Shown: piece by piece, positions 4,701 through 26,353 of the stretch
How the letters are laid out: each line of letters starts with the position of its first letter
Position numbering within the stretch: position 1 is the first letter of the stretch
Origin: Breznakia blatticola
GTDB taxonomy: Bacteria; Bacillota_I; Bacilli_A; Erysipelotrichales; Erysipelotrichaceae
Assembly: GCF_004365815.1 (NCBI RefSeq)
Contig: NZ_SODD01000001.1
Span: 1 to 32,000 of the forward strand
Reading direction: 5' to 3'
DNA: 32,000 bases
Translations under genes and position numbers: made by a program
Notes under the pieces: model-generated
The model's database searches: none
What the model was told of the DNA's origin: nothing
What the model saw: the letters and a program-made list of their open reading frames with translations, nothing else

Positions 4701-5435
4701 TTATAAGCATCCAATCAAATCGCGGTAATTTTTAATATATTCTTTGTTGATATCATCTCCTTCATCTAAGTTTGAACTTACATATATCGGTGGTTGAAAA
4801 CCATTTTCTACACATAACTCAATCACACGTGCACTAATTCCATCCAATACAGTCATTCCAAGAATTGTCGATGTTCCTGTAAATTTAACATCTAAACCTT
4901 CAACTGACATAGCTGCATCTCCTTTAACACACTTCACATCAATTACGATATCTGCTACATCACGTAAGTTCTTACCTGATGAATGACGTGAACCTAGTGA
5001 TTCTGAAAATTGTTTAGAAGTTAAGGCAATGACTTTCATTCCTTTTTCCTTTGCAGCATTTGCCATATCAATTGCTGCAGCATTTCTTCCTGAGATAGAT
5101 ACGATAATCATCGTATCTTTATCTGACGTGTTTTCTAAATCTAAGTATCCTTGCGAGAAGTTCTCAATACGTTCTTGCATCGTACTTAATTTCGCTTTCG
5201 GAAATAATGCAAGATGTGGGATTAACAATGCATTTACTGGAACTAATCCTCCTGCACGATAGAACAGTTCCATTGCAAACATTTGAGAATGTCCACAACC
5301 AAACACATGAATGAGTCGATCACTCATAATGGATTTTGCACAAACTTGTGCAGCTTGTTCAATTTGTGTAGCTTCTTGGCTAAACTGTTGTTCGAGTTGT
5401 TTTAAAACAACTTCTAAAAATTCATTCTGTTTCAT
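4701..5435 (-). CDS. SIS-domain protein of the UPF0309 type (putative phosphosugar isomerase or binding protein)
   Basis: IHVFGCGHSQMFAMELFYRAGGLVPVNALL and VSISGRNAAAIDMA are SIS/UPF0309-like motifs. The protein is 244 aa and has the RBS AAGGAG. The gene is embedded between the IIA and IIB genes. Confidence 0.75.
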   Translation of the reverse strand: MKQNEFLEVVLKQLEQQFSQEATQIEQAAQVCAKSIMSDRLIHVFGCGHSQMFAMELFYRAGGLVPVNALLIPHLALFPKAKLSTMQERIENFSQGYLDLENTSDKDTMIIVSISGRNAAAIDMANAAKEKGMKVIALTSKQFSESLGSRHSSGKNLRDVADIVIDVKCVKGDAAMSVEGLDVKFTGTSTILGMTVLDGISARVIELCVENGFQPPIYVSSNLDEGDDINKEYIKNYRDLIGCL

Positions 5436-5444
5436 CTTTGCTCC

Positions 5445-5888
5445 TTAATAGTTTTGTATTTTTTCTAGTATTGCTTCTTTACTTCCATGTGATTTCAGTA
5501 AAGTAATAAATTCTTGATCTTGCAGCAACATGGCAAGTTTTTGCAACATGTCCATATGAGAATCTTTATCTACTGCTGCAAATGCAAATGCTGCTTTAAT
5601 ATGGATATCTTTAAATTCACTAAAGTCAACATCATGTTCAAATGTAACTAAACTAAGACATGGCTCATTGACTTTATCTCCTGGTTCTCCATGAAACAAT
5701 GCAATCTCTGGTAGTAAAATCATGTATGGACCAAGTTTTTCTACAGTAGCAATCATTGAATCGACATACATAGGTTTGATTTTATCTTTTGCGACAAGTA
5801 GCTTTCCACAGCTTCTTACCGCATCTCTCCATGAATCAACACGTACCTCCGTCTCAACAAATGCTTCATTTAATATATCTTTTAACAT
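5445..5888 (-). CDS. PTS EIIA component (mannitol/fructose/ascorbate PTS_EIIA_2 type)
   Basis: The 147-aa protein carries ...PYMILLPEIALFHGEP..., the conserved His phosphorylation context of EIIA-2. RBS GAAAGGAGGG. Confidence 0.85.
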   Translation of the reverse strand: MLKDILNEAFVETEVRVDSWRDAVRSCGKLLVAKDKIKPMYVDSMIATVEKLGPYMILLPEIALFHGEPGDKVNEPCLSLVTFEHDVDFSEFKDIHIKAAFAFAAVDKDSHMDMLQKLAMLLQDQEFITLLKSHGSKEAILEKIQNY

Positions 5889-15306: not shown

Positions 15307-16578
15307 CTAAACTCCAACATGTGTAAGTGCTTGTTCAAGATCCGCAATAATATCATCTGCATTTTCTAGACCAATAGAAATACGCACTAGATTTGCAGGA
15401 ATATTTGCAGCTTCTAGTTCTTCATCACTTAATTGACGATGTGTTGCACTTGCTGGATGTAAAGCACAAGTTGCACTATCAGCAACATGAACTTCCATTT
15501 TAATTAATTTCAAGTTATCCAATAATTTTGCAGCATCTTCACGCCCACCTTTTAAAATGATTGATAATACGCCACTACAACCTTTTGGTAAGTATTTTTG
15601 TTGGAGGCTGTAGTATTTATTTGATGGTAAACCTGGATAGTTCACCGATTCAATTTTTTCATGATTTTCTAACCACGTTGCAACTTTGCATGCATTTTCA
15701 TAGTGACGGTCCATACGTAAGTGTAATGTGTCAATTCCTAGATTTAAGTAAAATGAATTTTGTGGTGCTGGTGTACATCCTAAATCACGCATCAACTGTG
15801 CAAGTGCTTTAGTAATGTAAGCTTGCTTACCAAATGCTTTTGTATAACTTAATCCATGGTATGAAGGATCTGGTTCACTAATTTGTGGGAATTTTCCATT
15901 GTCCCAATTAAACGTTCCTCCATCTACAATACATCCACCAACAGCTACTGCATGTCCATCAAGATATTTTGTTGTTGAATGTGTAACGATATCTGCTCCA
16001 AGTTTCAATGGATTACAGAAATATGGAGTAGGAAATGTATTATCCACAATCAATGGTACATCATGATCATGCGCTAGCTTACTAAACTTATCAAAGTCTA
16101 ATACACTCAATTGTGGGTTTGCTAATGTTTCAGCAAATACTGCTTTTGTATTGTCTTTAAGATATGTTTTTAGTTCATCTAATGGTAAATCTTGATCTAC
16201 AAATGTTACTTCAATTCCCATTTTCTTTAATGTATGCGCAAATAGATTGTATGTTCCTCCATAGATATTACTACTTGAAAGAATATGATCCCCACTGTGG
16301 GCTAGGTTCAAGATGGCAATAAAGCTTGCTGCTTGTCCACTACTTGTACATAGTGCACCAACTCCACCTTCTAATTCAGCAATACGTTTTTCAACTGCTG
16401 CAGTTGTTGGGTTTGCAAGTCTCGTATAAAAGAAGCCAGGAACTTTCAAATCGAATAAGTCACCAACATATTCTGTTGAATCATATGCAAATGTTGTGCT
16501 TTGCGTAATTGGTAAAACTCTAGGTTCTCCATTTTTCGCTTCATAGCCACTGTGTAATATTTTTGTTTCTACTTTCAT
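15307..16578 (-). CDS. metY: O-acetylhomoserine sulfhydrylase / aminocarboxypropyltransferase (PLP, Cys/Met-metabolism family)
   Basis: MKVETKILHSGYE.., YTRLANPT and VTHSTTKYLDGH (PLP lysine context) are present. The ATG at 16578 is preceded by AAGGGGGA. Confidence 0.9.
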   Translation of the reverse strand: MKVETKILHSGYEAKNGEPRVLPITQSTTFAYDSTEYVGDLFDLKVPGFFYTRLANPTTAAVEKRIAELEGGVGALCTSSGQAASFIAILNLAHSGDHILSSSNIYGGTYNLFAHTLKKMGIEVTFVDQDLPLDELKTYLKDNTKAVFAETLANPQLSVLDFDKFSKLAHDHDVPLIVDNTFPTPYFCNPLKLGADIVTHSTTKYLDGHAVAVGGCIVDGGTFNWDNGKFPQISEPDPSYHGLSYTKAFGKQAYITKALAQLMRDLGCTPAPQNSFYLNLGIDTLHLRMDRHYENACKVATWLENHEKIESVNYPGLPSNKYYSLQQKYLPKGCSGVLSIILKGGREDAAKLLDNLKLIKMEVHVADSATCALHPASATHRQLSDEELEAANIPANLVRISIGLENADDIIADLEQALTHVGV

Positions 16579-16600
16579 GTGTACATCCCCCTTATAAAAC

Positions 16601-16850
16601 AAAAAAATCTCTCATCCATAGGACGAAAGATTCGTGGTACCACCTATATTCGTATAGCTTTCACAAGACTATACCTCTTCGTGTTCTAACAAACACTATC
16701 GCTTTAACGGGCGAACCCGATATACATTTACAAATGCTCATGTATACAACTCCAAGACCATCTTCACTAATTATATCAATGTTCCTTTTCACCATCCAGA
16801 ACTCTCTAAGAATGACGCCATTAGTTACTCTTCTTTTCTTCGTTTTTGTT
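16601..16850 (-). promoter_or_regulatory. T-box leader (tRNA-sensing riboswitch), probable Met specifier, with intrinsic terminator
   Basis: The minus strand shows AGAGAG...GGATGGTGAAAAGG (Stem I motifs) and AGTGAAGATGG with ATG at plus-strand 16759-16761 in the specifier position. The T-box sequence TAGGTGGTACCACGAATC has its core at 16633-16644. The terminator AATCTTTCGTCC/GGATGAGAGATT plus TTTTTTT is at 16601-16632. Confidence 0.85.
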
Positions 16851-16856
16851 TTTTAC

Positions 16857-16884
16857 ATTGTAACATATCACTTTTCAGTGTCAA
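16857..16884 (-). promoter_or_regulatory. Promoter of the T-box/metY-metA unit
   Basis: The minus strand reads TTGACA (16879-16884), a 16-nt spacer ending in TGT, then TACAAT (16857-16862). Confidence 0.6.
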
Positions 16885-16963
16885 TCACGAAATGTATTTT
16901 TTATATTTTCTTGACAACTAATCAAGTAATTGCTTTCACTCACTTAAATGTTTCTCTATTTTT

Positions 16964-17491
16964 CTATCCTTCAGGATTGTATTCTATATCTTCGTATCCT
17001 TGTTCTACATACCATTCCAAGTAATCAAAGAAACCTTCATGACTCAATCCATATTCTCTATAATATTCGTTTACCCATGCCTCTGCTTCCTTCATGCTTT
17101 CAATTACTTCTTCATCACAATCAGTTTCTTCTGTTTCATAATAGTACATACAATATGTCATATTAGTATCTTTGCTATTATAAAACCTTGCCTTTTTTTC
17201 ACGTTTATTATCTATACTATCAAATATAACAATATTCTTATCTCCTTCATATCTATAGTCAATCGAGAATATTTTCTTTCCTAACCCTCGTGATAATCGA
17301 TTGTAATTCACTCCTAAATCAATCTTTGGATCGAGAGTAACACTTATTGAAGTTGATCGAGTATCAATTGAGTCAATTATGACTCCTGCCTTATCCATTT
17401 TCTCTTGGTACTTTTCTCCACTGAATGTTTGATTGCATCCTATCAGCATACACATTACAATCAATACACTTAGGATTCTTTTTTTTCTCAT
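16964..17491 (-). CDS. Lipoprotein (175 aa) in the immunity-gene position of the LXG cassette
   Basis: MRKKRILSVLIVMCMLIGCNQTF has a signal peptide and lipobox (L-I-G-C19). The start lies 4 nt after the LXG gene stop. I recognise no family. Confidence 0.7.
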   Translation of the reverse strand: MRKKRILSVLIVMCMLIGCNQTFSGEKYQEKMDKAGVIIDSIDTRSTSISVTLDPKIDLGVNYNRLSRGLGKKIFSIDYRYEGDKNIVIFDSIDNKREKKARFYNSKDTNMTYCMYYYETEETDCDEEVIESMKEAEAWVNEYYREYGLSHEGFFDYLEWYVEQGYEDIEYNPEG

Positions 17492-17495
17492 AGTA

Positions 17496-19229
17496 TTACT
17501 CCCCTACTTTCTTATTCATAAAATTTTCAACTCGTATTACAATCTCTTCAATCTCATTCACATATTCTAAATCGTTATACAAATCTGCTACATCTACTTT
17601 AGGAAGTCTAATATATATTGTCCCCTTTTTGTCATCAATATACTCACAACCTTCAAGACTCATACACATATCTTGTATTTCACTTATTTTTTTTATTTTA
17701 CTTGGATCAATCCCATACGTTGCTATTGCATCTAACTTCTGATTATAATTATCTACTGCTTTTCCTGTAGCTTCACTAAGAATAAACTGTGTATTATTTT
17801 TCACTGTTATACACTTCAGATCAAACTCATCTACCAACCCTGAATTAAGTAATACATCTTCATCTGTAAATCTTGAAGTACTTGTATACTTTCCGTTTTT
17901 ATACTTTTCTATTTGCTTTGAATCAATTCCATACACATTCATAATATCTGACAGTGCAATTGCACCATCTACTACAGTTAGTACTCCTATTTGATCCATA
18001 AATCCGACACCATAACTCATTAATCCTAGTAGAGTATCTACTCGATCCATCATTCGCTTATTTTCTACATAATCGATTATCATTTCTTTTTCTCCTAATC
18101 GACCATGTGATTTTACTTCAAATTCCACAGCATTGTTATTACCTGAATTTGCAAACGATACTCCAGTAAGCAATCCTTTTCCATCTATCTCGTCATATGA
18201 AAATAATGTTTCTGTTCCTAATATACCTCTTAGATCTAACACATAATCTAATTGTATGCTCATTTCCAACATTGCTTCTACTTTAACAAATCGTTTCGCA
18301 TATTTTTCCCATTCGAAATCTTTGTTGTTTACATTTAGGATTCCTTCTTCTCGTAGTTTATGTTCACTCATAAAAAGTACTAATTGAAATAGAGGTGAAG
18401 GTGAATACCCATTCTTCACCTGTGATTTTTCTGTGTCATATATTCGTGTTATGTCATATGGCACATTATATCCATACGTCATAATTAATGGCATTTCACT
18501 TTCATCAATGCGAATGATAATATCCGTGATATTTTCGAATTCTTCACGACTAACGTCACCAATATCTTTCTTGAGTATTCTTTCGATATACTTCTTTCCT
18601 TCTTCAGTCAATTTACCATCTGCAGTAATGTATTTAGATAAATATGCGTCTTTCGACTCTTCTACCCATGATAAATCAACATCTGTAAACTGCAGTTTTT
18701 TAGTATCAAAACTTACATCCTTTACTACTTCAATTCCGCGCTTTAACTGTTGAATGTATATCTCTGTGTGATCATAATACTTATTTGCTTGTATGTCATA
18801 ATCATAAAGATCATCTATCTTTCTTCTCAAAACTCTTAAATTATATTGATATAGTTCTTCAATTCCTGCAGTAAACTGCATTGGCATACTTTCCAATTTT
18901 CTTAACATTCCGTTTATACTCATAATTATCGTCTCAATTTCTTCCTCATTAAGATATTGATCTCCGAGCATACATGTATATAGATTTTCAGTACTTCGAT
19001 TTGATCGAATTAGTTCCTCACACAACCAAATATGAATCTGATATAAATTATAATACACACTCCGTATATAACGTTTATGAGCTGCAAAAGCTTGTCCTTG
19101 TAATTCTTGATTCACACAAAAAGCATCAATCTCTTTCAATACAGATTGACTAGTTTCTTTCATTTCTCTTAATGCACTATTTAAATCACTGAATTGGTTT
19201 TGCATTTCTCTAAGATGGAAGGACTTCAT
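17496..19229 (-). CDS. LXG-domain protein (type VII secretion polymorphic toxin candidate), 577 aa, with an unassigned C-terminal region
   Basis: The N-terminal ~190 aa look helical and contain ELQGQAFAAHKRYIRSVYY (L43-x-G45; nt 19095-19103), the LXG signature context. There is no signal peptide. The RBS AGAGGAGGAAACAGATA is strong. The gene is flanked by small helper-like genes upstream and a candidate immunity gene downstream. Confidence 0.75.
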   Translation of the reverse strand: MKSFHLREMQNQFSDLNSALREMKETSQSVLKEIDAFCVNQELQGQAFAAHKRYIRSVYYNLYQIHIWLCEELIRSNRSTENLYTCMLGDQYLNEEEIETIIMSINGMLRKLESMPMQFTAGIEELYQYNLRVLRRKIDDLYDYDIQANKYYDHTEIYIQQLKRGIEVVKDVSFDTKKLQFTDVDLSWVEESKDAYLSKYITADGKLTEEGKKYIERILKKDIGDVSREEFENITDIIIRIDESEMPLIMTYGYNVPYDITRIYDTEKSQVKNGYSPSPLFQLVLFMSEHKLREEGILNVNNKDFEWEKYAKRFVKVEAMLEMSIQLDYVLDLRGILGTETLFSYDEIDGKGLLTGVSFANSGNNNAVEFEVKSHGRLGEKEMIIDYVENKRMMDRVDTLLGLMSYGVGFMDQIGVLTVVDGAIALSDIMNVYGIDSKQIEKYKNGKYTSTSRFTDEDVLLNSGLVDEFDLKCITVKNNTQFILSEATGKAVDNYNQKLDAIATYGIDPSKIKKISEIQDMCMSLEGCEYIDDKKGTIYIRLPKVDVADLYNDLEYVNEIEEIVIRVENFMNKKVGE

Positions 19230-19458
19230 TATCTGTTTCCTCCTCTTTACTTATTTCTCTTTCTATTTCTTCTAACTCTTGACTTACTTTATTCATTGCC
19301 CTTTTATGAATATCCAAGCTTTCTTTTGACATATTCCCACTGTCAGTCAAAGGAAATATCTCATAAAGATTTGCAAACAATTCATTGCTTTCCTTTAATA
19401 ATTCTCTTAGTTCTTCAAGTTTCCCTTTTTGTATATACAACACATCTTTATTATTCAT
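19210..19458 (-). CDS. Small acidic helical protein (82 aa) in the Lap2/DUF3958-like helper position
   Basis: The composition is rich in heptad-like Leu/Glu repeats (KGKLEELRELLKESNELFANLYE...VSQELEEIEREISKEEE). Its ATG overlaps the stop of the 87-aa gene (ATGA), and its 3' end overlaps the LXG gene by 20 nt. The assignment rests on synteny and size. Confidence 0.5.
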   Translation of the reverse strand: MNNKDVLYIQKGKLEELRELLKESNELFANLYEIFPLTDSGNMSKESLDIHKRAMNKVSQELEEIEREISKEEETDNEVLPS

Positions 19459-19718
19459 TTTCCAATTTCATCTCCAATCTTCGCATCAAGATTTTTAAAG
19501 TTTTTGGAAATAGTTTCTACTTTACCTATATCTCTTTTAAAGTAATTATGAATACTTTTGTGTATAGTAAAAGTTTCATTTGCTTGAAATGAAATTCTTT
19601 CTTGTGTAGATAGATTAGTAGCAGATGAATATTTTACTTGATTGATAGTTGTTTTTACTTTAGTTTGTAGTTTATTAAGAAAACTACTTATATACTTATG
19701 ATTAACTCGCACTGGCAT
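19455..19718 (-). CDS. Small T7SS-effector-like protein (87 aa) of the TIGR04197/DUF3130 (Lap1-like) type
   Basis: First gene of the cassette, with the RBS GAGGGGAAAAGA. Its length, its Ser/Thr/Asn/Gln-rich N-terminal and central part, and its C-terminal ...VETISKNFKNLDAKIGDEIGK resemble the F-x-x-x-D-x-x-I/L tail of SACOL2603-family proteins. Confidence 0.55.
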   Translation of the reverse strand: MPVRVNHKYISSFLNKLQTKVKTTINQVKYSSATNLSTQERISFQANETFTIHKSIHNYFKRDIGKVETISKNFKNLDAKIGDEIGK

Positions 19719-19748
19719 TCTTTTCCCCTCATATCATTTAATTATATA

Positions 19749-19776
19749 ATTATAACAGTTGAGATTTTTTCGTCAA
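19749..19776 (-). promoter_or_regulatory. Strong sigma-A-type promoter of the LXG cassette
   Basis: The minus strand reads TTGACG (19771-19776), a 16-nt spacer ending in TGT, then TATAAT (19749-19754). It lies about 30 nt upstream of the first gene's RBS. Confidence 0.6.
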
Positions 19777-19827
19777 TCTTCGTTTGCTTTACCTAAAATT
19801 CGAAAAATGTAGTATTTTTTGTATTTT

Positions 19828-21285
19828 CTACTTTATTTTACTTAGTGCAGTTTCATTTACCCAAATGGAAACGGAACCATCATTCACTGGGAATTGAGCA
19901 CGACCATCTTCTTCAATCACCAGTTTCTCACTACGATTTCCAAGACAGTCCACAAAGATATGACCGGCTTGCATTGCCCCAACACTCATGCGTTTACTTC
20001 CACCTTTTGCATTGGTTAAAACAATGGCAATTCCTGAATCTGGATGTTCCAAATCTCCATAACGAGTAAACCCAACAATATCTGGATCATCAAAATAATC
20101 CATTTGTGAGCCATACGCTAAACATTCACGCGCTTTGATAATGGTACGAATTGGTGTCTTTACTTCTCCTGTTTGTACATCAAATAAATCGGTGTAAAAA
20201 ACACAAGGAATTCCTTCATCTCTAAGTAATATCAAGCTATAGGCCTGTAATTTAAACCATTCCTCTACCCAAGATTCTAAGCTTTGTCCTTGTTGGGTAT
20301 CATGATTATCCACAAAGGTAACTGCCCAATCATGTCTTGAAGCAAGTAAGGTTTGATCAAAGATTTTTCGCATATCGTATGTACCATTTGAACTGCTTGC
20401 ATGGAATAAATTAAAGTGTAATGGCACATCAAATAGATGCATCATCCCACCACATGAATCTAAGTAATTTTCCAAACGTTCGACTTCTCCATTCCAGTAT
20501 TCACCTACTGCAAATAGTTCACGTCCAGCTTCTTCATTTCGCTTTTTTAGCCAATCGATAAAAAATGAAAATTGAATGTGTTTGACGGCATCAATGCGAA
20601 ATCCATCCACATGGGTTTGTTCAAGATACCAACGCCCCCATAAATCAAGTTGTTCCACCGTTTCTTTGTAGTCCATATCCAAATCGGCACCCATTAAATA
20701 ATCATAGTTTCCATTGTCGTGGTCAACTTCACTTTCCCACTGTTTTCCTTCAAATCCCCAAATAGCATTATTTCCTGTGCGTTCATCATGATTTACACCT
20801 TTAAAGTTTTTCCATGTCCATGTGTAATCATTATATTTTTGCTGGCGATTTGGAAAAGTAAACTTCGTCCACGCAAGAATACTTTCTGGTTGACTGATAA
20901 CTTTGTTTCGGTTGTTATCGGCAAAACGTAAGGCCTCTACTTCTTCGGTTTCGTCTGCTCCTAAAAAGTGATCAAAAACAATATCGGCATATACTTGAAC
21001 ATCGCAATAATGAAATGTATCAATAAGATCATGATATTCTTGTTTCGTTCCATATTTTGTTGGTACACTTCCTTTTTGATCGAATTCTCCTAAATCATAT
21101 AAGTCATAGGTTCCATATCCTACATCATCGATTCCTTGTGCACCTTTATATGCTGGAGGTAACCATACACCTGTAATTCCCGCTTCTTTGATCGTATTTG
21201 CTTTATCTGCTAAAAAACGCCAATGACTCGCATCGGCTTTTACATACCATTCAAATCCCTGTAAAATTGTCTTGTTTCTCTTCAT
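19828..21285 (-). CDS. Cytoplasmic alpha-amylase (GH13, Bacillus licheniformis / E. coli AmyA-like)
   Basis: MKRNKTILQGFEWY..., GVWLPPAYKG, DGFRIDAVKHI (catalytic Asp region), EYW and FVDNHDTQ are conserved GH13 regions I-IV. There is no signal peptide. Confidence 0.9.
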   Translation of the reverse strand: MKRNKTILQGFEWYVKADASHWRFLADKANTIKEAGITGVWLPPAYKGAQGIDDVGYGTYDLYDLGEFDQKGSVPTKYGTKQEYHDLIDTFHYCDVQVYADIVFDHFLGADETEEVEALRFADNNRNKVISQPESILAWTKFTFPNRQQKYNDYTWTWKNFKGVNHDERTGNNAIWGFEGKQWESEVDHDNGNYDYLMGADLDMDYKETVEQLDLWGRWYLEQTHVDGFRIDAVKHIQFSFFIDWLKKRNEEAGRELFAVGEYWNGEVERLENYLDSCGGMMHLFDVPLHFNLFHASSSNGTYDMRKIFDQTLLASRHDWAVTFVDNHDTQQGQSLESWVEEWFKLQAYSLILLRDEGIPCVFYTDLFDVQTGEVKTPIRTIIKARECLAYGSQMDYFDDPDIVGFTRYGDLEHPDSGIAIVLTNAKGGSKRMSVGAMQAGHIFVDCLGNRSEKLVIEEDGRAQFPVNDGSVSIWVNETALSKIK

Positions 21286-22073: not shown

Positions 22074-22100
22074 TAAGAAAAGCATGTGCAAGCACATGCT
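22074..22100 (-). terminator. Probable terminator after the S-component-like gene
   Basis: AGCATGTGC (22081-22089) pairs with GCACATGCT (22092-22100). On the minus strand it is followed by TTTCTTA. The stem overlaps the stop codon. Confidence 0.55.
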
Positions 22101-22599
22101 AGAGTTTGTATTTTATACTAAGTTGACCAAGTACTTGGTTTACTTTTGAAAATAGTATTAGCATAATCATAAAATTGGCAATTCCGTGAATTACATCGTA
22201 TGGAATTCCACGCACATAATATGCAACTCCTATTTCAAATGACATCATAAAGTATGGAATCGAAAATAAGAAACCAAAACTTAAACCAAATAGTCCGCTA
22301 AAAAATGCCCAACGATATTCATCTGTACATATCTTTTTACACAATTTCGTTATACAAACAAGTCCTGGCCAAACCATGAAATAAACAGGTGTCCAAGTTC
22401 CTACGCCATAAAGAATCATTTGCAGAAAGCAAAAGAGTACGCTTATAAATAAACATCCACGTAGTTGAAAATGTAACGCATACATAATCAGTAGAAAGCT
22501 CACCAATTCGACATTTGGTAGAAAGGCTAACATCTCTTTGGAAACAACAAGTAAAGCTGCACACATTGTGTAAATGACAATACTTTGCACATTACGCAT
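22099..22599 (-). CDS. Small polytopic membrane protein (~166 aa, about 5-6 TM), ECF-transporter S-component-like; candidate cobalamin-specific
   Basis: The hydrophobic profile and size are typical of ECF S components. The gene is co-transcribed behind a cobalamin riboswitch. The start is uncertain: ATG at 22599 or TTG at 22608, neither with a strong RBS. Confidence 0.55.
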   Translation of the reverse strand: MRNVQSIVIYTMCAALLVVSKEMLAFLPNVELVSFLLIMYALHFQLRGCLFISVLFCFLQMILYGVGTWTPVYFMVWPGLVCITKLCKKICTDEYRWAFFSGLFGLSFGFLFSIPYFMMSFEIGVAYYVRGIPYDVIHGIANFMIMLILFSKVNQVLGQLSIKYKL

Positions 22600-22600
22600 G

Positions 22601-23032
22601 TTATTCAAAAGCCATTAAAGTAAATGTAAAGCTATCGTTATCAACGATATTTAAATCTTCAGCTGACGGGCAAAAATCTGCTTTTGTACATTGTTCATTT
22701 GTATCTGATGTATAAGTCCAAAATGTATTGGCAGTTTTATCTTCTTTATACATTTTTGAGCCACCCATTCCCGTAATATACATTCCATAGTCACTGTTTG
22801 TATAGTCTAGTTTAATGGTTTTTTCATCCTTCAATTCTTTTAGTAAATCAGCAAGTGAACTTGCATTAGTTTTTACTTGTTCATTGAAGACTTCTTTGTC
22901 ATCAGCAACAATTACGACTTGCACTGTTTTTTTACTATCATCTTTGTTGAGTTCGCGATATCCATAGATTCCACCTACAACAGCAAGTAGTAAAACGAGT
23001 GCTCCAACTATCAATTTTGTTTTTTTATTCAT
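22601..23032 (-). CDS. Membrane-anchored exported protein (143 aa), DUF4430 / transcobalamin-beta-domain-like; candidate surface B12-binding protein
   Basis: The N-terminal anchor is MNKKTKLIVGALVLLLAVVGGIYGY. The mature part includes ...YGMYITGMGG...FWTYTSD..., resembling DUF4430 proteins. It is the first gene after the cobalamin riboswitch. Confidence 0.55.
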   Translation of the reverse strand: MNKKTKLIVGALVLLLAVVGGIYGYRELNKDDSKKTVQVVIVADDKEVFNEQVKTNASSLADLLKELKDEKTIKLDYTNSDYGMYITGMGGSKMYKEDKTANTFWTYTSDTNEQCTKADFCPSAEDLNIVDNDSFTFTLMAFE

Positions 23033-23085
23033 CTATCTCTCTCTTTCCTTGTTTCAACCCTAGAAAACAATTATAAACATTAGAC

Positions 23086-23233
23086 AATGGCAGGTCTTCT
23101 GACTCTACTTCAACAAGCATATCCCTTCCCATGGATTCCACAGTGGTTTGATATACTTTCCATATTACAGCTGCTAGGACAGTTGTAGATTCTCACTACA
23201 TTCCCTATTCTCCATCTTTAGGATGGCACCATT
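23086..23233 (-). promoter_or_regulatory. Cobalamin (B12) riboswitch
   Basis: The minus strand reads AATGGTGCCATCC..AATAGGGAA..GTGAGAATC..AGCAGCTGTAAT..CCACTG..GGGAAGG..GAGTCAGAAGACCTGCC. This includes the B12 box AGTCAGAAGACCTGCC (plus-strand 23089-23104). A TGCTATAAT extended -10 lies at about 23255-23263. Confidence 0.85.
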
Positions 23234-23323
23234 GAATATAAATTGACATTGATTATTATAGCATGCAAGTCAAGTTTCATATAAACAAAAAATCTCAGCA
23301 TATGTTGATAAAGGAAGCAAAGT

Positions 23324-23360: not shown

Positions 23361-25739
23361 TTATCCGATAATTTGTTGCACAATTTTAACTGTAGCCATG
23401 GCATCTACACCATAATAGTCAGCATGAATCTCATCTGCGATTTCTTGCGTTAAGACTGCCCCACCAACCATTATTGGACAAACCTCATCATATTGACGTA
23501 AGGCTTCAATGGTTTTCTTCATCGAAACAACAGTTGTTGTCATCAGTGCAGATAATCCAATTGCTTTTGGTTTATATTTCAAAAATGCATCAACCACACT
23601 TTGCACTGGAACATTTTTTCCTAAATCGATGACTTCATAGCCATACGATTCCAATACAACTTTCACAATATTCTTACCAATATCATGAATATCACCTTCC
23701 ACTGTAGCCATTATAATAGGCCCTTTTTTTGTTGCTGAGCTTCCTTGCATTCTACTTTGGAGTACTTCAAAAGCTACTTTCGTTGTTTCTGCTGATTGAA
23801 TGAGTTGTGGCAAGAAAATCTTTCCACTTTCATAATCATCACCTACTTGATTTAAAGCAGGAATAACAATATCTTGGACGATATCGAGTGGTTGTTTAGT
23901 TTCTAATTCTTGTGTAGCTAATGTATGCACTTCATCTTTTAAGCCGCGTATTATTGCATCATATAGTGACATTTGATCAAAACTTTGTGTTGTATTTGTA
24001 TGATGTTGAACTACTTTCTTTTCTACAGTCACATTTGCTTGATGTGCAATGTACTTTGTACTATCCACATCTTGATTAGTGATTACATTGAATGCGTCAA
24101 TAGTTGACATCAATTCAAAATCCAGTGGATTGATAATTGGCAAATCTAGGCCTGCTTGCATCGCCATCGTAAGGAATGTACGGTTTAGTAATGGACGATT
24201 AGGCAAACCAAAAGATACATTACTTACACCTAGTACCGTATGATGTCCAAGTTCTTTTACCATTTGTAGAGCTCGTAGTGTTTCTTGCACTTCTTTTTGT
24301 TGAGCACTTGCAGTTAAAGTTAAACAATCAATAATTACATCTTTAGGATGAATTCCATAAGCTTCTGCTTGTTTTATCATATCCTTAGCGAGTTGAACTC
24401 GTTCACTAGCTAATAGTGGAATTTGATCAGCAAGAGTTAAACCAATAACTACTCCACCATACTTCTTAGCAATCGGTAGTATATTATGCATTACTTCTGG
24501 TTTAGCATTAATCGAGTTAATTAATGGTCGTCCATTGTAATATCGACATGCTTTTTCTAGCGCTTCGGGTGAAGAACTATCCATCTGTAGTGGTAAATTG
24601 ATCACTTCTTGAATCATTTTCACCACTTTTGTCATGACTTGGCTTTCATCGATACCTGGCACACCAACATTCACATCAAGAATATCTGCACCAGCTTCTT
24701 GTTGGTGAATGGCTTCACGTAATACTTCATCATATTTTTCATCAAGTAGTGCTTGTTTTAACTTTTTCTTTCCCGTAGGGTTCAAACGTTCTCCACATAC
24801 AATTACCTGATTTTCAAAAGTAACAGTTTTACTACCACTGGATACTCTTGTTTTCTTCTTAGCAGGTGTAAAGTGCAATCCTAACTCACTTGCTTTTTTT
24901 GCTTCTTGAATAAATGCAGGTGTTGTTCCACAACAACCACCAATGATACTGACTCCCATTTCTACAAACCTATGGGCATACATTGCATATTCTTCACTTG
25001 TTAAATGATAATGTGTTTCTCCATGTTCTAAACATGGTAAACCAGCATTTGGTTGTACAATCATTGGAATTCTAGCAACAGCTAAAATTTCTTCGACAAT
25101 CGGTAATAGTTCTTTAGGACCAAGTGAGCAGTTTACACCAAGTACATCTGCACCCAAACCTTCAACGACATTCACAAATGTCAATGGGTCTGTTCCAGTT
25201 AATGAACGTCCATTTGCTTCAAAAGTCATTGATACAATAATTGGTAAATCACAGGTTTCCTTAATTGCGAGTATTGCTGCTTTGACTTCATAAATATCCG
25301 TCATTGTTTCCACAATAAATGCATCTACTTTATCTTTAGCAAACTCTACTTGCACTTTGAATTGTTCGTAGGCTTCATCAAATGATAATGTTCCCATTGG
25401 TTCTAACAATTGTCCAATCGGTCCCATATCATAGGCGATATATACTTCACGATCTACACCTATCTTTGCTTGATTTGCATTATCAATTGCATGTGTAATC
25501 AAATCTTCTAATTCATACAAGCTGTCTGCCATCTTATAAGGCGAACAACCAAATGTATTTGTACTAATAAAATCAGCACCTGCATCTAGGTATGACTTGT
25601 GAATACGAATCATATCCTCTTTACGGGTGATATTATATTCTTCAGGAATGTCTCCAGCTTTTAAGCCAATGTTTTGTAGTTGGGTACCCATCGCCCCATC
25701 AAAAACGAGAACTCGTTTCTTTAACTGTTCTAGTAACAT
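23361..25739 (-). CDS. metH: Cobalamin-dependent methionine synthase MetH, core only (Hcy-binding, pterin-binding, B12 cap and B12-binding domains; no activation domain)
   Basis: The Hcy methyltransferase domain is marked by VFDGAMGTQL and GGCCGTTP. The pterin-binding region includes INSI. The B12-binding motif is VEGDIHDIGKNIV (DxHxxG). At 792 aa it is about 440 aa shorter than full-length MetH. The ATG at 25739 is preceded by AAGGGGGAG. Confidence 0.9.
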   Translation of the reverse strand: MLLEQLKKRVLVFDGAMGTQLQNIGLKAGDIPEEYNITRKEDMIRIHKSYLDAGADFISTNTFGCSPYKMADSLYELEDLITHAIDNANQAKIGVDREVYIAYDMGPIGQLLEPMGTLSFDEAYEQFKVQVEFAKDKVDAFIVETMTDIYEVKAAILAIKETCDLPIIVSMTFEANGRSLTGTDPLTFVNVVEGLGADVLGVNCSLGPKELLPIVEEILAVARIPMIVQPNAGLPCLEHGETHYHLTSEEYAMYAHRFVEMGVSIIGGCCGTTPAFIQEAKKASELGLHFTPAKKKTRVSSGSKTVTFENQVIVCGERLNPTGKKKLKQALLDEKYDEVLREAIHQQEAGADILDVNVGVPGIDESQVMTKVVKMIQEVINLPLQMDSSSPEALEKACRYYNGRPLINSINAKPEVMHNILPIAKKYGGVVIGLTLADQIPLLASERVQLAKDMIKQAEAYGIHPKDVIIDCLTLTASAQQKEVQETLRALQMVKELGHHTVLGVSNVSFGLPNRPLLNRTFLTMAMQAGLDLPIINPLDFELMSTIDAFNVITNQDVDSTKYIAHQANVTVEKKVVQHHTNTTQSFDQMSLYDAIIRGLKDEVHTLATQELETKQPLDIVQDIVIPALNQVGDDYESGKIFLPQLIQSAETTKVAFEVLQSRMQGSSATKKGPIIMATVEGDIHDIGKNIVKVVLESYGYEVIDLGKNVPVQSVVDAFLKYKPKAIGLSALMTTTVVSMKKTIEALRQYDEVCPIMVGGAVLTQEIADEIHADYYGVDAMATVKIVQQIIG

Positions 25740-26353
25740 GTGCTCCCCCTTTTTAAATACTCGCAGTGTTCTTTTTGTGTACAACTTTTGCACGACTTCT
25801 TTTGTTTATCCATATGTAAACCCACAAATCCAGTCATGCTTTTCATTGGCACAAATAAACTGGATGCATCTAATGAAACCCCAATCTTTTTATGCAAATT
25901 CATGAGCTTGCATAACTGTTGATTTAATTCTAATGGTATATCACCATATCCAGGTGCATAGCGAAAACTATGATTTTTACCAAACACTTCATCTTCATAT
26001 GCATCGCAACAAGCTTCCACATAAGCGGAAGCAACTGCATCAAAGACTACAGCTTTTTGCATATCAAGAGAGTGATAATATCGAGTTCTACTATCGATTT
26101 CACTTCCTAAAGTACAAGCGATAATTGCAATTTCTTTACATGAACCTAATGCTTCAATTAAATCATTTGAATCTACGCGTAAATCAAAAGCAGTTAAAAT
26201 AAAAGGTGCTTGTAACTTACTAATCACATACGTTGCTTTAAAATGTGAAAGTTCTTTAACTTCTTTCTCGCATGTATCTAATAGTTCAAGAAATGAATCA
26301 CTCAATTCCTGATTACTATATCCTAAGTATTTTAATGCAGTTTGTTTAATCAT
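25730..26353 (-). CDS. Stand-alone methionine synthase activation (reactivation, AdoMet-binding) domain protein with a Cys-rich tail
   Basis: The 207-aa protein carries ...FRYAPGYGDIPL...SMTGFVGL..., which resembles the MetH C-terminal activation domain. The C-terminus is CKSCTQKEHCEYLKRGSTCY (C-x2-C-x5-C-x8-C). The gene overlaps metF (8 nt) and metH (10 nt). Confidence 0.7.
   Translation of the reverse strand: MIKQTALKYLGYSNQELSDSFLELLDTCEKEVKELSHFKATYVISKLQAPFILTAFDLRVDSNDLIEALGSCKEIAIIACTLGSEIDSRTRYYHSLDMQKAVVFDAVASAYVEACCDAYEDEVFGKNHSFRYAPGYGDIPLELNQQLCKLMNLHKKIGVSLDASSLFVPMKSMTGFVGLHMDKQKKSCKSCTQKEHCEYLKRGSTCY

Follow-up and report, generated by a model that had tools for sequence, protein, structure and literature searches.

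Do four tightly packed genes on a contig of Breznakia blatticola form a toxin cassette of the LXG type, exported by type VII secretion, and, if so, where might the toxin act? The genes lie on the minus strand of a stretch of 32,000 nucleotides (nt), here called the window (NCBI RefSeq assembly GCF_004365815.1, contig NZ_SODD01000001.1, positions 1 to 32,000). Among Firmicutes, LXG cassettes serve as the principal weapons against other bacteria; to our knowledge, the activities of few LXG payloads have been described, and very few of these payloads act outside the membrane. The answer proposed here, with a probability of roughly 0.8, is that the cassette is an LXG polymorphic-toxin module of the type VII secretion kind, made up of a Lap1-type helper, a second small helper, the toxin, and a lipoprotein. 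Sequence comparison showed here the kinship of the LXG domain and the Lap1-type helper, the conserved gene order, the insertion of the cassette, and the lack of a known match to the payload; how the proteins would assemble, be exported, act as a toxin, and confer immunity is proposed by analogy with the systems of Streptococcus intermedius (PMC9600955, PMC10801868), and where the toxin acts is likewise a proposal.

Organization of the Cassette

The four open reading frames (ORFs), for products of 87, 82, 577, and 175 amino acids (aa), follow one another closely behind a near-consensus promoter. In window coordinates, the features are as follows:

19749-19776, minus strand: promoter-like site TTGACG-16-TATAAT with a TG extension, a consensus match only, inside the inserted island (see below) and upstream of the first gene
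19455-19718, minus strand: Lap1-type helper gene, 87 aa, assigned by a custom hidden Markov model (HMM), profile-profile comparison, Smith-Waterman alignment, and synteny
19210-19458, minus strand: second small helper gene in the Lap2 slot, 82 aa, assigned by its conserved position
17496-19229, minus strand: LXG gene, 577 aa, an ORF
18630-19229, minus strand: LXG domain, codons 1-200 of the 577-aa protein, with L43-Q44-G45, assigned by LXG homology
17496-18629, minus strand: C-terminal family-specific region, codons 201-577 and the stop, the presumed payload, matched only by two relatives (P0003 and P0004, see below)
16964-17491, minus strand: candidate immunity gene for a 175-aa lipoprotein, directly 3' of the toxin gene

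The ORF coordinates given in a first-pass annotation of this DNA are all present, as are the ATGA overlap between the 87-aa and 82-aa genes (19455-19458), the 20-nt overlap between the 82-aa and 577-aa genes (19210-19229), and the 4-nt gap that separates the toxin stop from the 175-aa gene (17492-17495). The protein segments that it quoted are correct, namely ELQGQAFAAHKRYIRSVYY with L43-Q44-G45 in the 577-aa protein and the C-terminus ...ISKNFKNLDAKIGDEIGK of the 87-aa protein; the 577-aa protein is, as it stated, without a signal peptide, an N-terminal hydrophobic stretch being absent. The promoter that it described was recovered by a scan of 16500-20000, in which TTGACG-16-TATAAT (19776-19749, minus strand) matches 11 of the 12 consensus positions and is the top-scoring site, tied only with a T-box promoter (16884-16857). 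Purine-rich ribosome-binding sites (GAGGGG, GGAGG, and GGGGAG) precede three of the four starts by 8-9 nt, and that of the 82-aa gene is weaker (GGAG, 13 nt upstream). No convincing terminator was found downstream of the lipoprotein gene (fold z -0.8), so the cassette transcripts may run into the T-box leader that follows. The 577-aa and 87-aa proteins are identical to B. blatticola EDD63_10121 and EDD63_10123, the former of which carries the UniRef label 'LXG domain-containing protein'.

A Divergent LXG Domain

The first-pass annotation had read the 577-aa protein as an LXG protein and the two small proteins as DUF3130- and DUF3958-type partners, and it had proposed profile-HMM searches of the three as a check. 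In Pfam, the LXG model (PF04740) matches residues 3-82 of the 577-aa protein (profile positions 2-82 of 202) with 19.1 bits (E 0.0013), which is below the gathering cut-off of 26.5 bits, and the NCBIfam scan of this protein gave no match. The 87-aa protein matches neither TIGR04197 nor PF11328 (DUF3130) at E <=1 in Pfam and NCBIfam, and the 82-aa protein has no Pfam match to DUF3958 (PF13125). These results weigh against an LXG cassette, and had the analysis ended with the library searches, the reading would have come close to refutation.

The intermediate sequences tell another story. An exhaustive phmmer (HMMER) search of 1.84 billion representative proteins with the 577-aa protein gave 75 matches, which are the query itself, two full-length homologues at 24-25% identity, and 72 proteins that match at the N-terminus only, over residues ~4-200, with E down to 1e-10. 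The full-length homologues are P0003 (563 aa, E 8e-28; ENA ERZ27245259/58) and P0004 (599 aa, E 2e-14; Logan SRR24146879). When the best 39 of the phmmer matches, including both full-length relatives, were scanned with Pfam, 39/39 proved to be LXG proteins at E <=0.001. The C-termini among these 39 comprise LHH, AHH, WHH, GHH, SHH, and colicin-type nucleases, EndoU, two deaminase families, TNT, and PT-TG; such a combination of a common N-terminus with many different toxic C-termini marks a polymorphic toxin family.

The Leu-x-Gly motif expected in the first helical hairpin of an LXG domain is conserved: in an alignment of 40 sequences, L43 never varies and G45 is kept in at least 90%. A comparison with hhalign of the three family N-termini with the 72 LXG N-termini gave a probability of 100% (E 3e-41, 203 columns). 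Within the family, P0004 clears the PF04740 cut-off by itself (32.7 bits) and P0003 scores 24.4 bits. Judged by this homology, residues 1 to ~200 of the 577-aa protein are a divergent but genuine LXG domain: the LXG assignment stands through phmmer, Pfam on the relatives, and hhalign, although the curated Pfam model applied to the protein itself stays under its cut-off.

The loci of the two full-length relatives have the following gene order:

L001/L003 (P0003 locus): 92 aa, 105 aa, toxin, and a tandem pair of proteins (163/164 aa), each anchored in the membrane at its N-terminus
L002 (P0004 locus): 96 aa, 121 aa, toxin, and a 189-aa lipoprotein with the lipobox VTGC

Since the same four-part order is thus found again at two independent metagenomic loci, the genes of the cassette are not chance ORFs. 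The closest LXG-only relatives come from Listeria weihenstephanensis, a strain of the Bacillus cereus group, and a metagenome (L004-L006). Their loci contain a 91-110-aa TIGR04197 protein, a DUF3958 protein, and the LXG protein, with genes in the immunity position where the contig is long enough, and the two genome-derived loci lie among housekeeping genes.

The First Helper

The 87-aa protein is basic (isoelectric point, pI, 9.9). Its kinship with Lap1 becomes visible through its counterparts: the first-gene protein of L002 clears the TIGR04197 cut-off of 26 bits with 32.2 bits, that of L001 reaches 17.6 bits with TIGR04197 and 23.1 bits with PF11328, and those of the Listeria, Bacillus, and metagenome LXG relatives reach 55.8-77.9 bits on TIGR04197. 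With a custom HMM made from these last three, which are confirmed members of TIGR04197, the 87-aa protein scores 18.9 bits, a value that 0/2000 shuffles reach, and with an HMM of five sequences (the same three with the L001 and L002 counterparts) it scores 30.9 bits. Smith-Waterman pairwise z-scores are 4.4-7.7, and an hhalign profile-profile comparison (A3 against A6) extends over the full length with E 1.5e-5 and a probability of 79%, with the F and D of the FxxxD motif aligned.

This motif deserves attention because Klein et al. found in 2022 that the FxxxD of Lap1, which corresponds to F77 and D81 in LapD1, is required for the export of an LXG toxin and not for the formation of the complex (PMC9600955). 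The 87-aa protein has it as F74-K-N-L-D78, and in an alignment of six proteins F74 and D78 are two of the four invariant positions, the others being the initiator Met and T34, which lies in a loop. The second Lap1 motif, DxxTxxxGN (PMC9600955), is not found: the loop reads SSATNLST, and only T34 is kept. By these comparisons the 87-aa protein is a divergent relative of Lap1/TIGR04197 (DUF3130). The proposed kinship thus holds by the custom HMM, the L002 ortholog, and the kept FxxxD, and it finds no match among the curated models themselves. Curated models, then, miss divergent Lap1 and LXG proteins, which intermediate sequences recover.

The models for these first genes show a peculiarity of their own. 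Those of L004-L006 clearly pass TIGR04197 yet are without a precomputed Pfam match to DUF3130; L005 and L006 weakly match Pfam DUF5344 (the Lap3 family), and L004 matches neither DUF5344 nor DUF3130. The L002 counterpart (53-343) matches both weakly. The Lap1 and Lap3 models seem to overlap for this subfamily.

The Second Helper

The gene for the 82-aa protein sits between the Lap1-type and LXG genes and overlaps both, and this position of the second gene is conserved at L001, L002, and L004-L006. The protein is acidic (pI 4.6) and, read by eye, has two helix-prone stretches around FPLTDSGNMS. That it occupies the DUF3958 slot, as the first-pass annotation proposed, agrees with these features; homology to DUF3958 was looked for and not found. 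Alignment with DUF3958 proteins by hhalign gave a probability of 0.8%, custom HMMs gave 3-5 bits, scores reached by 113-358 of 2000 shuffles (6-18%), and the second small proteins encoded at L001 and L002 show no significant similarity to the 82-aa protein. These results count, if weakly, against a Lap2 identity. It is from position and composition only that the Lap2 label is drawn.

One possibility is, therefore, that the 82-aa protein has a role other than Lap2-type targeting, as a chaperone, an intracellular antitoxin, or some other partner, or that it is dispensable. In its favor are the missing DUF3958 homology and the length of the protein, which is shorter than its counterparts (82 versus 105-121 aa). 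Against it, the slot between the Lap1-type and LXG genes is kept in all the loci examined, and the protein is acidic and, by eye, helix-prone. Moreover, DUF3958 proteins are without conserved motifs (PMC9600955), so the missing homology is weak evidence against a Lap2 role. This alternative is unlikely, and a Lap2-like function is the reading tentatively retained here; a second helper of this kind may be devoid of any family signal.

The Payload

With some LXG-only relatives the alignment continues to ~residue 257, so the family-specific part of the 577-aa protein amounts to ~320-380 aa. Among the 1.84 billion representatives searched with phmmer, the C-terminal region is matched only by P0003 and P0004, and the payload family forms three sequence clusters only. 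A search of 5.8 billion proteins with a C-terminal profile returned family members only, and word-indexed searches, for which the queries were the 577-aa and 87-aa proteins and the C-terminal profile, returned only the proteins themselves and P0004. Scans of genome and metagenome collections for the toxin family found nothing, the genome collection being without the source genome.

The payload has no match in Pfam or NCBIfam. Sequence and profile searches of the PDB with the toxin and the C-terminal profile gave nothing meaningful, and those with the LXG, Lap1-like, Lap2-like, and lipoprotein profiles gave no meaningful match either, the solved LXG/Lap complex included. Structure prediction tells against the proposal to the extent that no confident fold emerged: with the single full-length sequence, AlphaFold2 (AF2) gave a predicted local distance difference test (pLDDT) of 35, which is unusable, and with three sequences of the C-terminal region the mean pLDDT was 53.9, a low confidence. 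In the latter model, confidence is moderate at ~193-256 (helical) and ~464-574 (alpha/beta) and poor between them. Using Foldseek, this model was compared with the PDB, and nothing better than E 0.28 was found; rows for I-CreI and EscJ were rejected as noise. The statement of the first-pass annotation that the payload is not obviously any described one is, therefore, borne out in Pfam, in the PDB, and at the level of fold.

What chemistry could such a domain perform? The three-way alignment of the window protein, P0003, and P0004 has 47 invariant positions. His, Lys, Arg, and Cys are absent from them, and the polar residues among the 47 are E191, T208, Y214, E229, Y254, S278, S288, N299, Y310, Q326, D395, D398, T488, N496, and D549. 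The lack of invariant His, Lys, Arg, and Cys argues against HNH nucleases, deaminases, ADP-ribosyltransferases, and common proteases. This conservation pattern leaves carboxylate-based chemistry or a non-enzymatic membrane effect as candidates.

A glycine-rich, moderately hydrophobic stretch lies at ~399-435 of the 577-aa protein (Kyte-Doolittle peak 1.6). A glycine-zipper or pore-former class was considered for it and rejected, being kept as a lead, since there is no regular GxxxG and 399-435 is not hydrophobic in P0003.

The Lipoprotein and the Site of Action

At the N-terminus of the 175-aa product, MRKKRILSVLIVMCMLIGC is a lipoprotein signal peptide with the lipobox L-I-G-C and Cys19, and the mature domain of the product contains a conserved pair of cysteines, Cys114/Cys125. 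No match to curated family models was found for it. Its homology to the L002 lipoprotein extends over the full length (BLASTP E 6e-5), with both cysteines aligned; homology to the downstream proteins of L001 is not significant, a point against the overall reading. The spacing from the toxin gene to the downstream gene is a 4-nt gap in the window, an ATGA overlap in L001, and a 13-nt gap in L002. Hence, in 3/3 family loci, a small protein that is exported or anchored in the membrane comes directly after the toxin gene, and in none is there a cytoplasmic candidate in that place. The L001 proteins (4826-5811; 3207-4192 in L003) are 163/164-aa tandem paralogues (alignment z = 63) with an anchor but no lipobox cysteine, and they look like a duplicated immunity gene.

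A precedent for such an arrangement exists in TipC, a membrane-anchored, outward-facing immunity protein for the envelope-acting toxin TelC (PMC10765036). By analogy, the 175-aa lipoprotein is probably the cognate immunity protein, which would protect the producer. The payload itself may act on the envelope of neighboring Gram-positive cells, that is, on the membrane, lipid II, or the wall, as in the TelC/TipC pair; this is put forward tentatively, at somewhat less than even odds, because every family member precedes an exported or anchored protein and because the payload has no invariant His, Lys, Arg, or Cys.

Another possibility is that the toxin acts in the cytoplasm of the target cell and that the lipoprotein is an unrelated passenger or an accessory factor rather than an immunity protein. 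Most C-termini of the related LXG proteins are indeed enzymes that act in the cytoplasm, and between the window lipoprotein and the proteins downstream at L001 no homology is detectable. However, all three family loci have their exported or anchored small protein coupled to the toxin gene or no more than 13 nt away, the window and L002 lipoproteins are homologous, and the invariant residues of the payload do not fit HNH nucleases, deaminases, or ADP-ribosyltransferases. A cytoplasmic target is, on balance, improbable, and the envelope is preferred here.

If the envelope is the target, the C-terminal ~320-380 aa might represent a new family of envelope-aimed toxins, with a new fold or activity, accompanied by a new family of lipoprotein immunity proteins; this possibility falls a little short of an even chance. 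A complete pair of toxin and surface lipoprotein from an insect-gut member of the Erysipelotrichaceae is, in any case, a plausible candidate for a new envelope-directed activity.

Export and the Overall Reading

How might these proteins work together? The basic 87-aa protein and the acidic 82-aa protein would bind the helical LXG domain (~1-200) of the 577-aa protein in the cytoplasm. The FxxxD of the Lap1-type helper (F74, D78) and the LxG region of the toxin (L43-G45) would then make up a composite signal that brings the complex to an EssC-type ATPase. The C-terminal ~320-380 aa would be the toxic payload, from an undescribed family, and the downstream lipoprotein would be the cognate immunity protein, anchored through Cys19 on the outer face of the membrane of the producer.

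A point against this scheme is that genes of a type VII apparatus are missing from the 32-kb window and from the 10 kb past its high end. No literature was found that links Breznakia or the Erysipelotrichaceae to type VII secretion or LXG proteins. A less likely possibility is that Breznakia is without a canonical T7SSb and exports the toxin via a recently described variant type VII system. Another is that the cassette is a stranded remnant that is not exported, with no compatible type VII system and with genes that are silent or decaying. In line with this, there is no apparatus gene within ~42 kb, the island that carries the cassette is a recent insertion absent from the nearest available relative (see below), and the exhaustive phmmer search revealed no closer LXG paralogue. 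Against a remnant stand the four intact and tightly coupled frames, the three clear ribosome-binding sites, the near-consensus promoter, and the keeping of both the FxxxD and LxG motifs; furthermore, a large distance between LXG loci and the secretion genes is common in Listeria, Bacillus, and Staphylococcus. A remnant of this kind is, accordingly, very improbable. The overall proposal of the first-pass annotation (an LXG cassette with a Lap1-type helper, a protein in the Lap2 slot, and a downstream lipoprotein) is supported, once evidence beyond the library searches is taken into account.

An Inserted Island and Its Surroundings

The closest genome available, that of Erysipelotrichaceae bacterium MTC7 (L008), encodes an amylase that shares 83% identity with that of the window; the genome is collinear with the window on both sides but is without the cassette. 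Using blastn, L008 9963-11464 was found to correspond to window 21323-19822 and L008 11470-15519 to window 16906-12813. The resulting features are as follows:

16907-19821, no strand assigned: inserted island of 2,915 bp that contains the four genes as well as the promoter and has no counterpart in the collinear region of MTC7
19812-19829, minus strand: left 18-nt direct repeat AGAAAATACAAAAAATAC, overlapping the alpha-amylase stop codon
16894-16911, minus strand: right 18-nt direct repeat AGAAAATATAAAAAATAC, just upstream of the T-box/metY promoter

The two copies are identical at 17/18 positions, with the consensus AGAAAATA(C/T)AAAAAATAC. At <=2 mismatches, the 18-nt repeat has two matches only in the 32 kb, against 0.04 expected, and both are at the edges of the island. 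The island encodes its own promoter and no recombinase. The cassette is probably, therefore, a horizontally inserted and mobile element, and so clean an insertion, with 18-nt repeats and no recombinase, raises the question of how such cassettes move.

An independent assembly, L007 (Logan contig SRR8436184_64, 103,607 bp), contains identical neighboring genes and ends ~80 bp beyond the amylase stop, which, by coordinate arithmetic, is within the left edge of the island near the promoter.

All the other genes of the window with a Pfam match are metabolic, transport, or regulatory. The neighbors include citrate synthase, aconitase, isocitrate dehydrogenase, components of the phosphotransferase system (PTS), metY/metA, alpha-amylase, and metH/metF. 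Before metY/metA, the minus strand carries a T-box leader (RF00230, 122.6 bits) at 16616-16849, which has its own promoter (16884-16857) and a terminator (16633-16605). At 23072-23248, also on the minus strand, is a cobalamin riboswitch (RF00174, 107.1 bits); downstream of it come the genes for a DUF4430 protein (22601-23032) and for a 169-aa protein that is uncharacterised (22099-22608). This region adjoins the B12-dependent methionine synthase, and metH/metF lie behind the cobalamin riboswitch. The methionine synthase (23361-26353, minus strand) appears to be split: an 810-aa protein has the homocysteine-, pterin-, and B12-binding domains, and a separate overlapping 207-aa ORF holds the activation domain (Met_synt_B12).

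Comparison with Known Systems

The general picture of type VII toxins is unchanged by this cassette, which is a complete module of an ordinary kind; its payload and lipoprotein are undescribed, and its helpers are divergent. Its two full-length relatives, P0003 and P0004, share the four-part gene order and the exported downstream protein. P0003 differs in that its downstream position is taken by two tandem transmembrane-anchored paralogues without a lipobox cysteine.

The closest LXG domains are those of the Listeria protein WP_118907344.1 (P0006) and the B. cereus-group protein WP_440034641.1 (P0007), with 26-28% identity and E 1e-9 to 1e-10. Their loci resemble the window in having an upstream TIGR04197 protein, a second small helper, and housekeeping surroundings. 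However, the second helper of both loci is a clear DUF3958 protein (E 1e-13 to 1e-24). P0006, unlike the window protein, has nuclease domains of the HNH/colicin-DNase type and is accompanied by cytoplasmic SUKH/SMI1 immunity proteins; P0007 has no annotated toxin domain.

TelE of Streptococcus gallolyticus is an LXG pore-former with a glycine-zipper motif. The window protein, likewise an LXG toxin and one that may be aimed at the membrane, has a glycine-rich, moderately hydrophobic stretch (399-435), but this stretch has no regular GxxxG zipper and is not hydrophobic in P0003, and no sequence relation to TelE was detected.

A further comparison is with the TelC cluster of S. intermedius, which consists of lapC1 (DUF3130), lapC2 (DUF3958), telC, and tipC. 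The payload of the window has no similarity to any PDB chain in a profile search at E up to 10, the toxin domain of TelC (5UKH) included. The immunity candidate in the window is a lipoprotein, whereas that of the TelC cluster is a single-pass membrane protein; in addition, the second helper of the window is not detectably a DUF3958 protein, and the DxxTxxxGN motif of its Lap1 is reduced to the Thr. Nevertheless, the two clusters have the same gene order and the FxxxD of Lap1, and in both, an LXG toxin of ~550 aa with a large C-terminal domain is followed by an immunity protein, a candidate in the case of the window, that is anchored in the membrane and faces outward.

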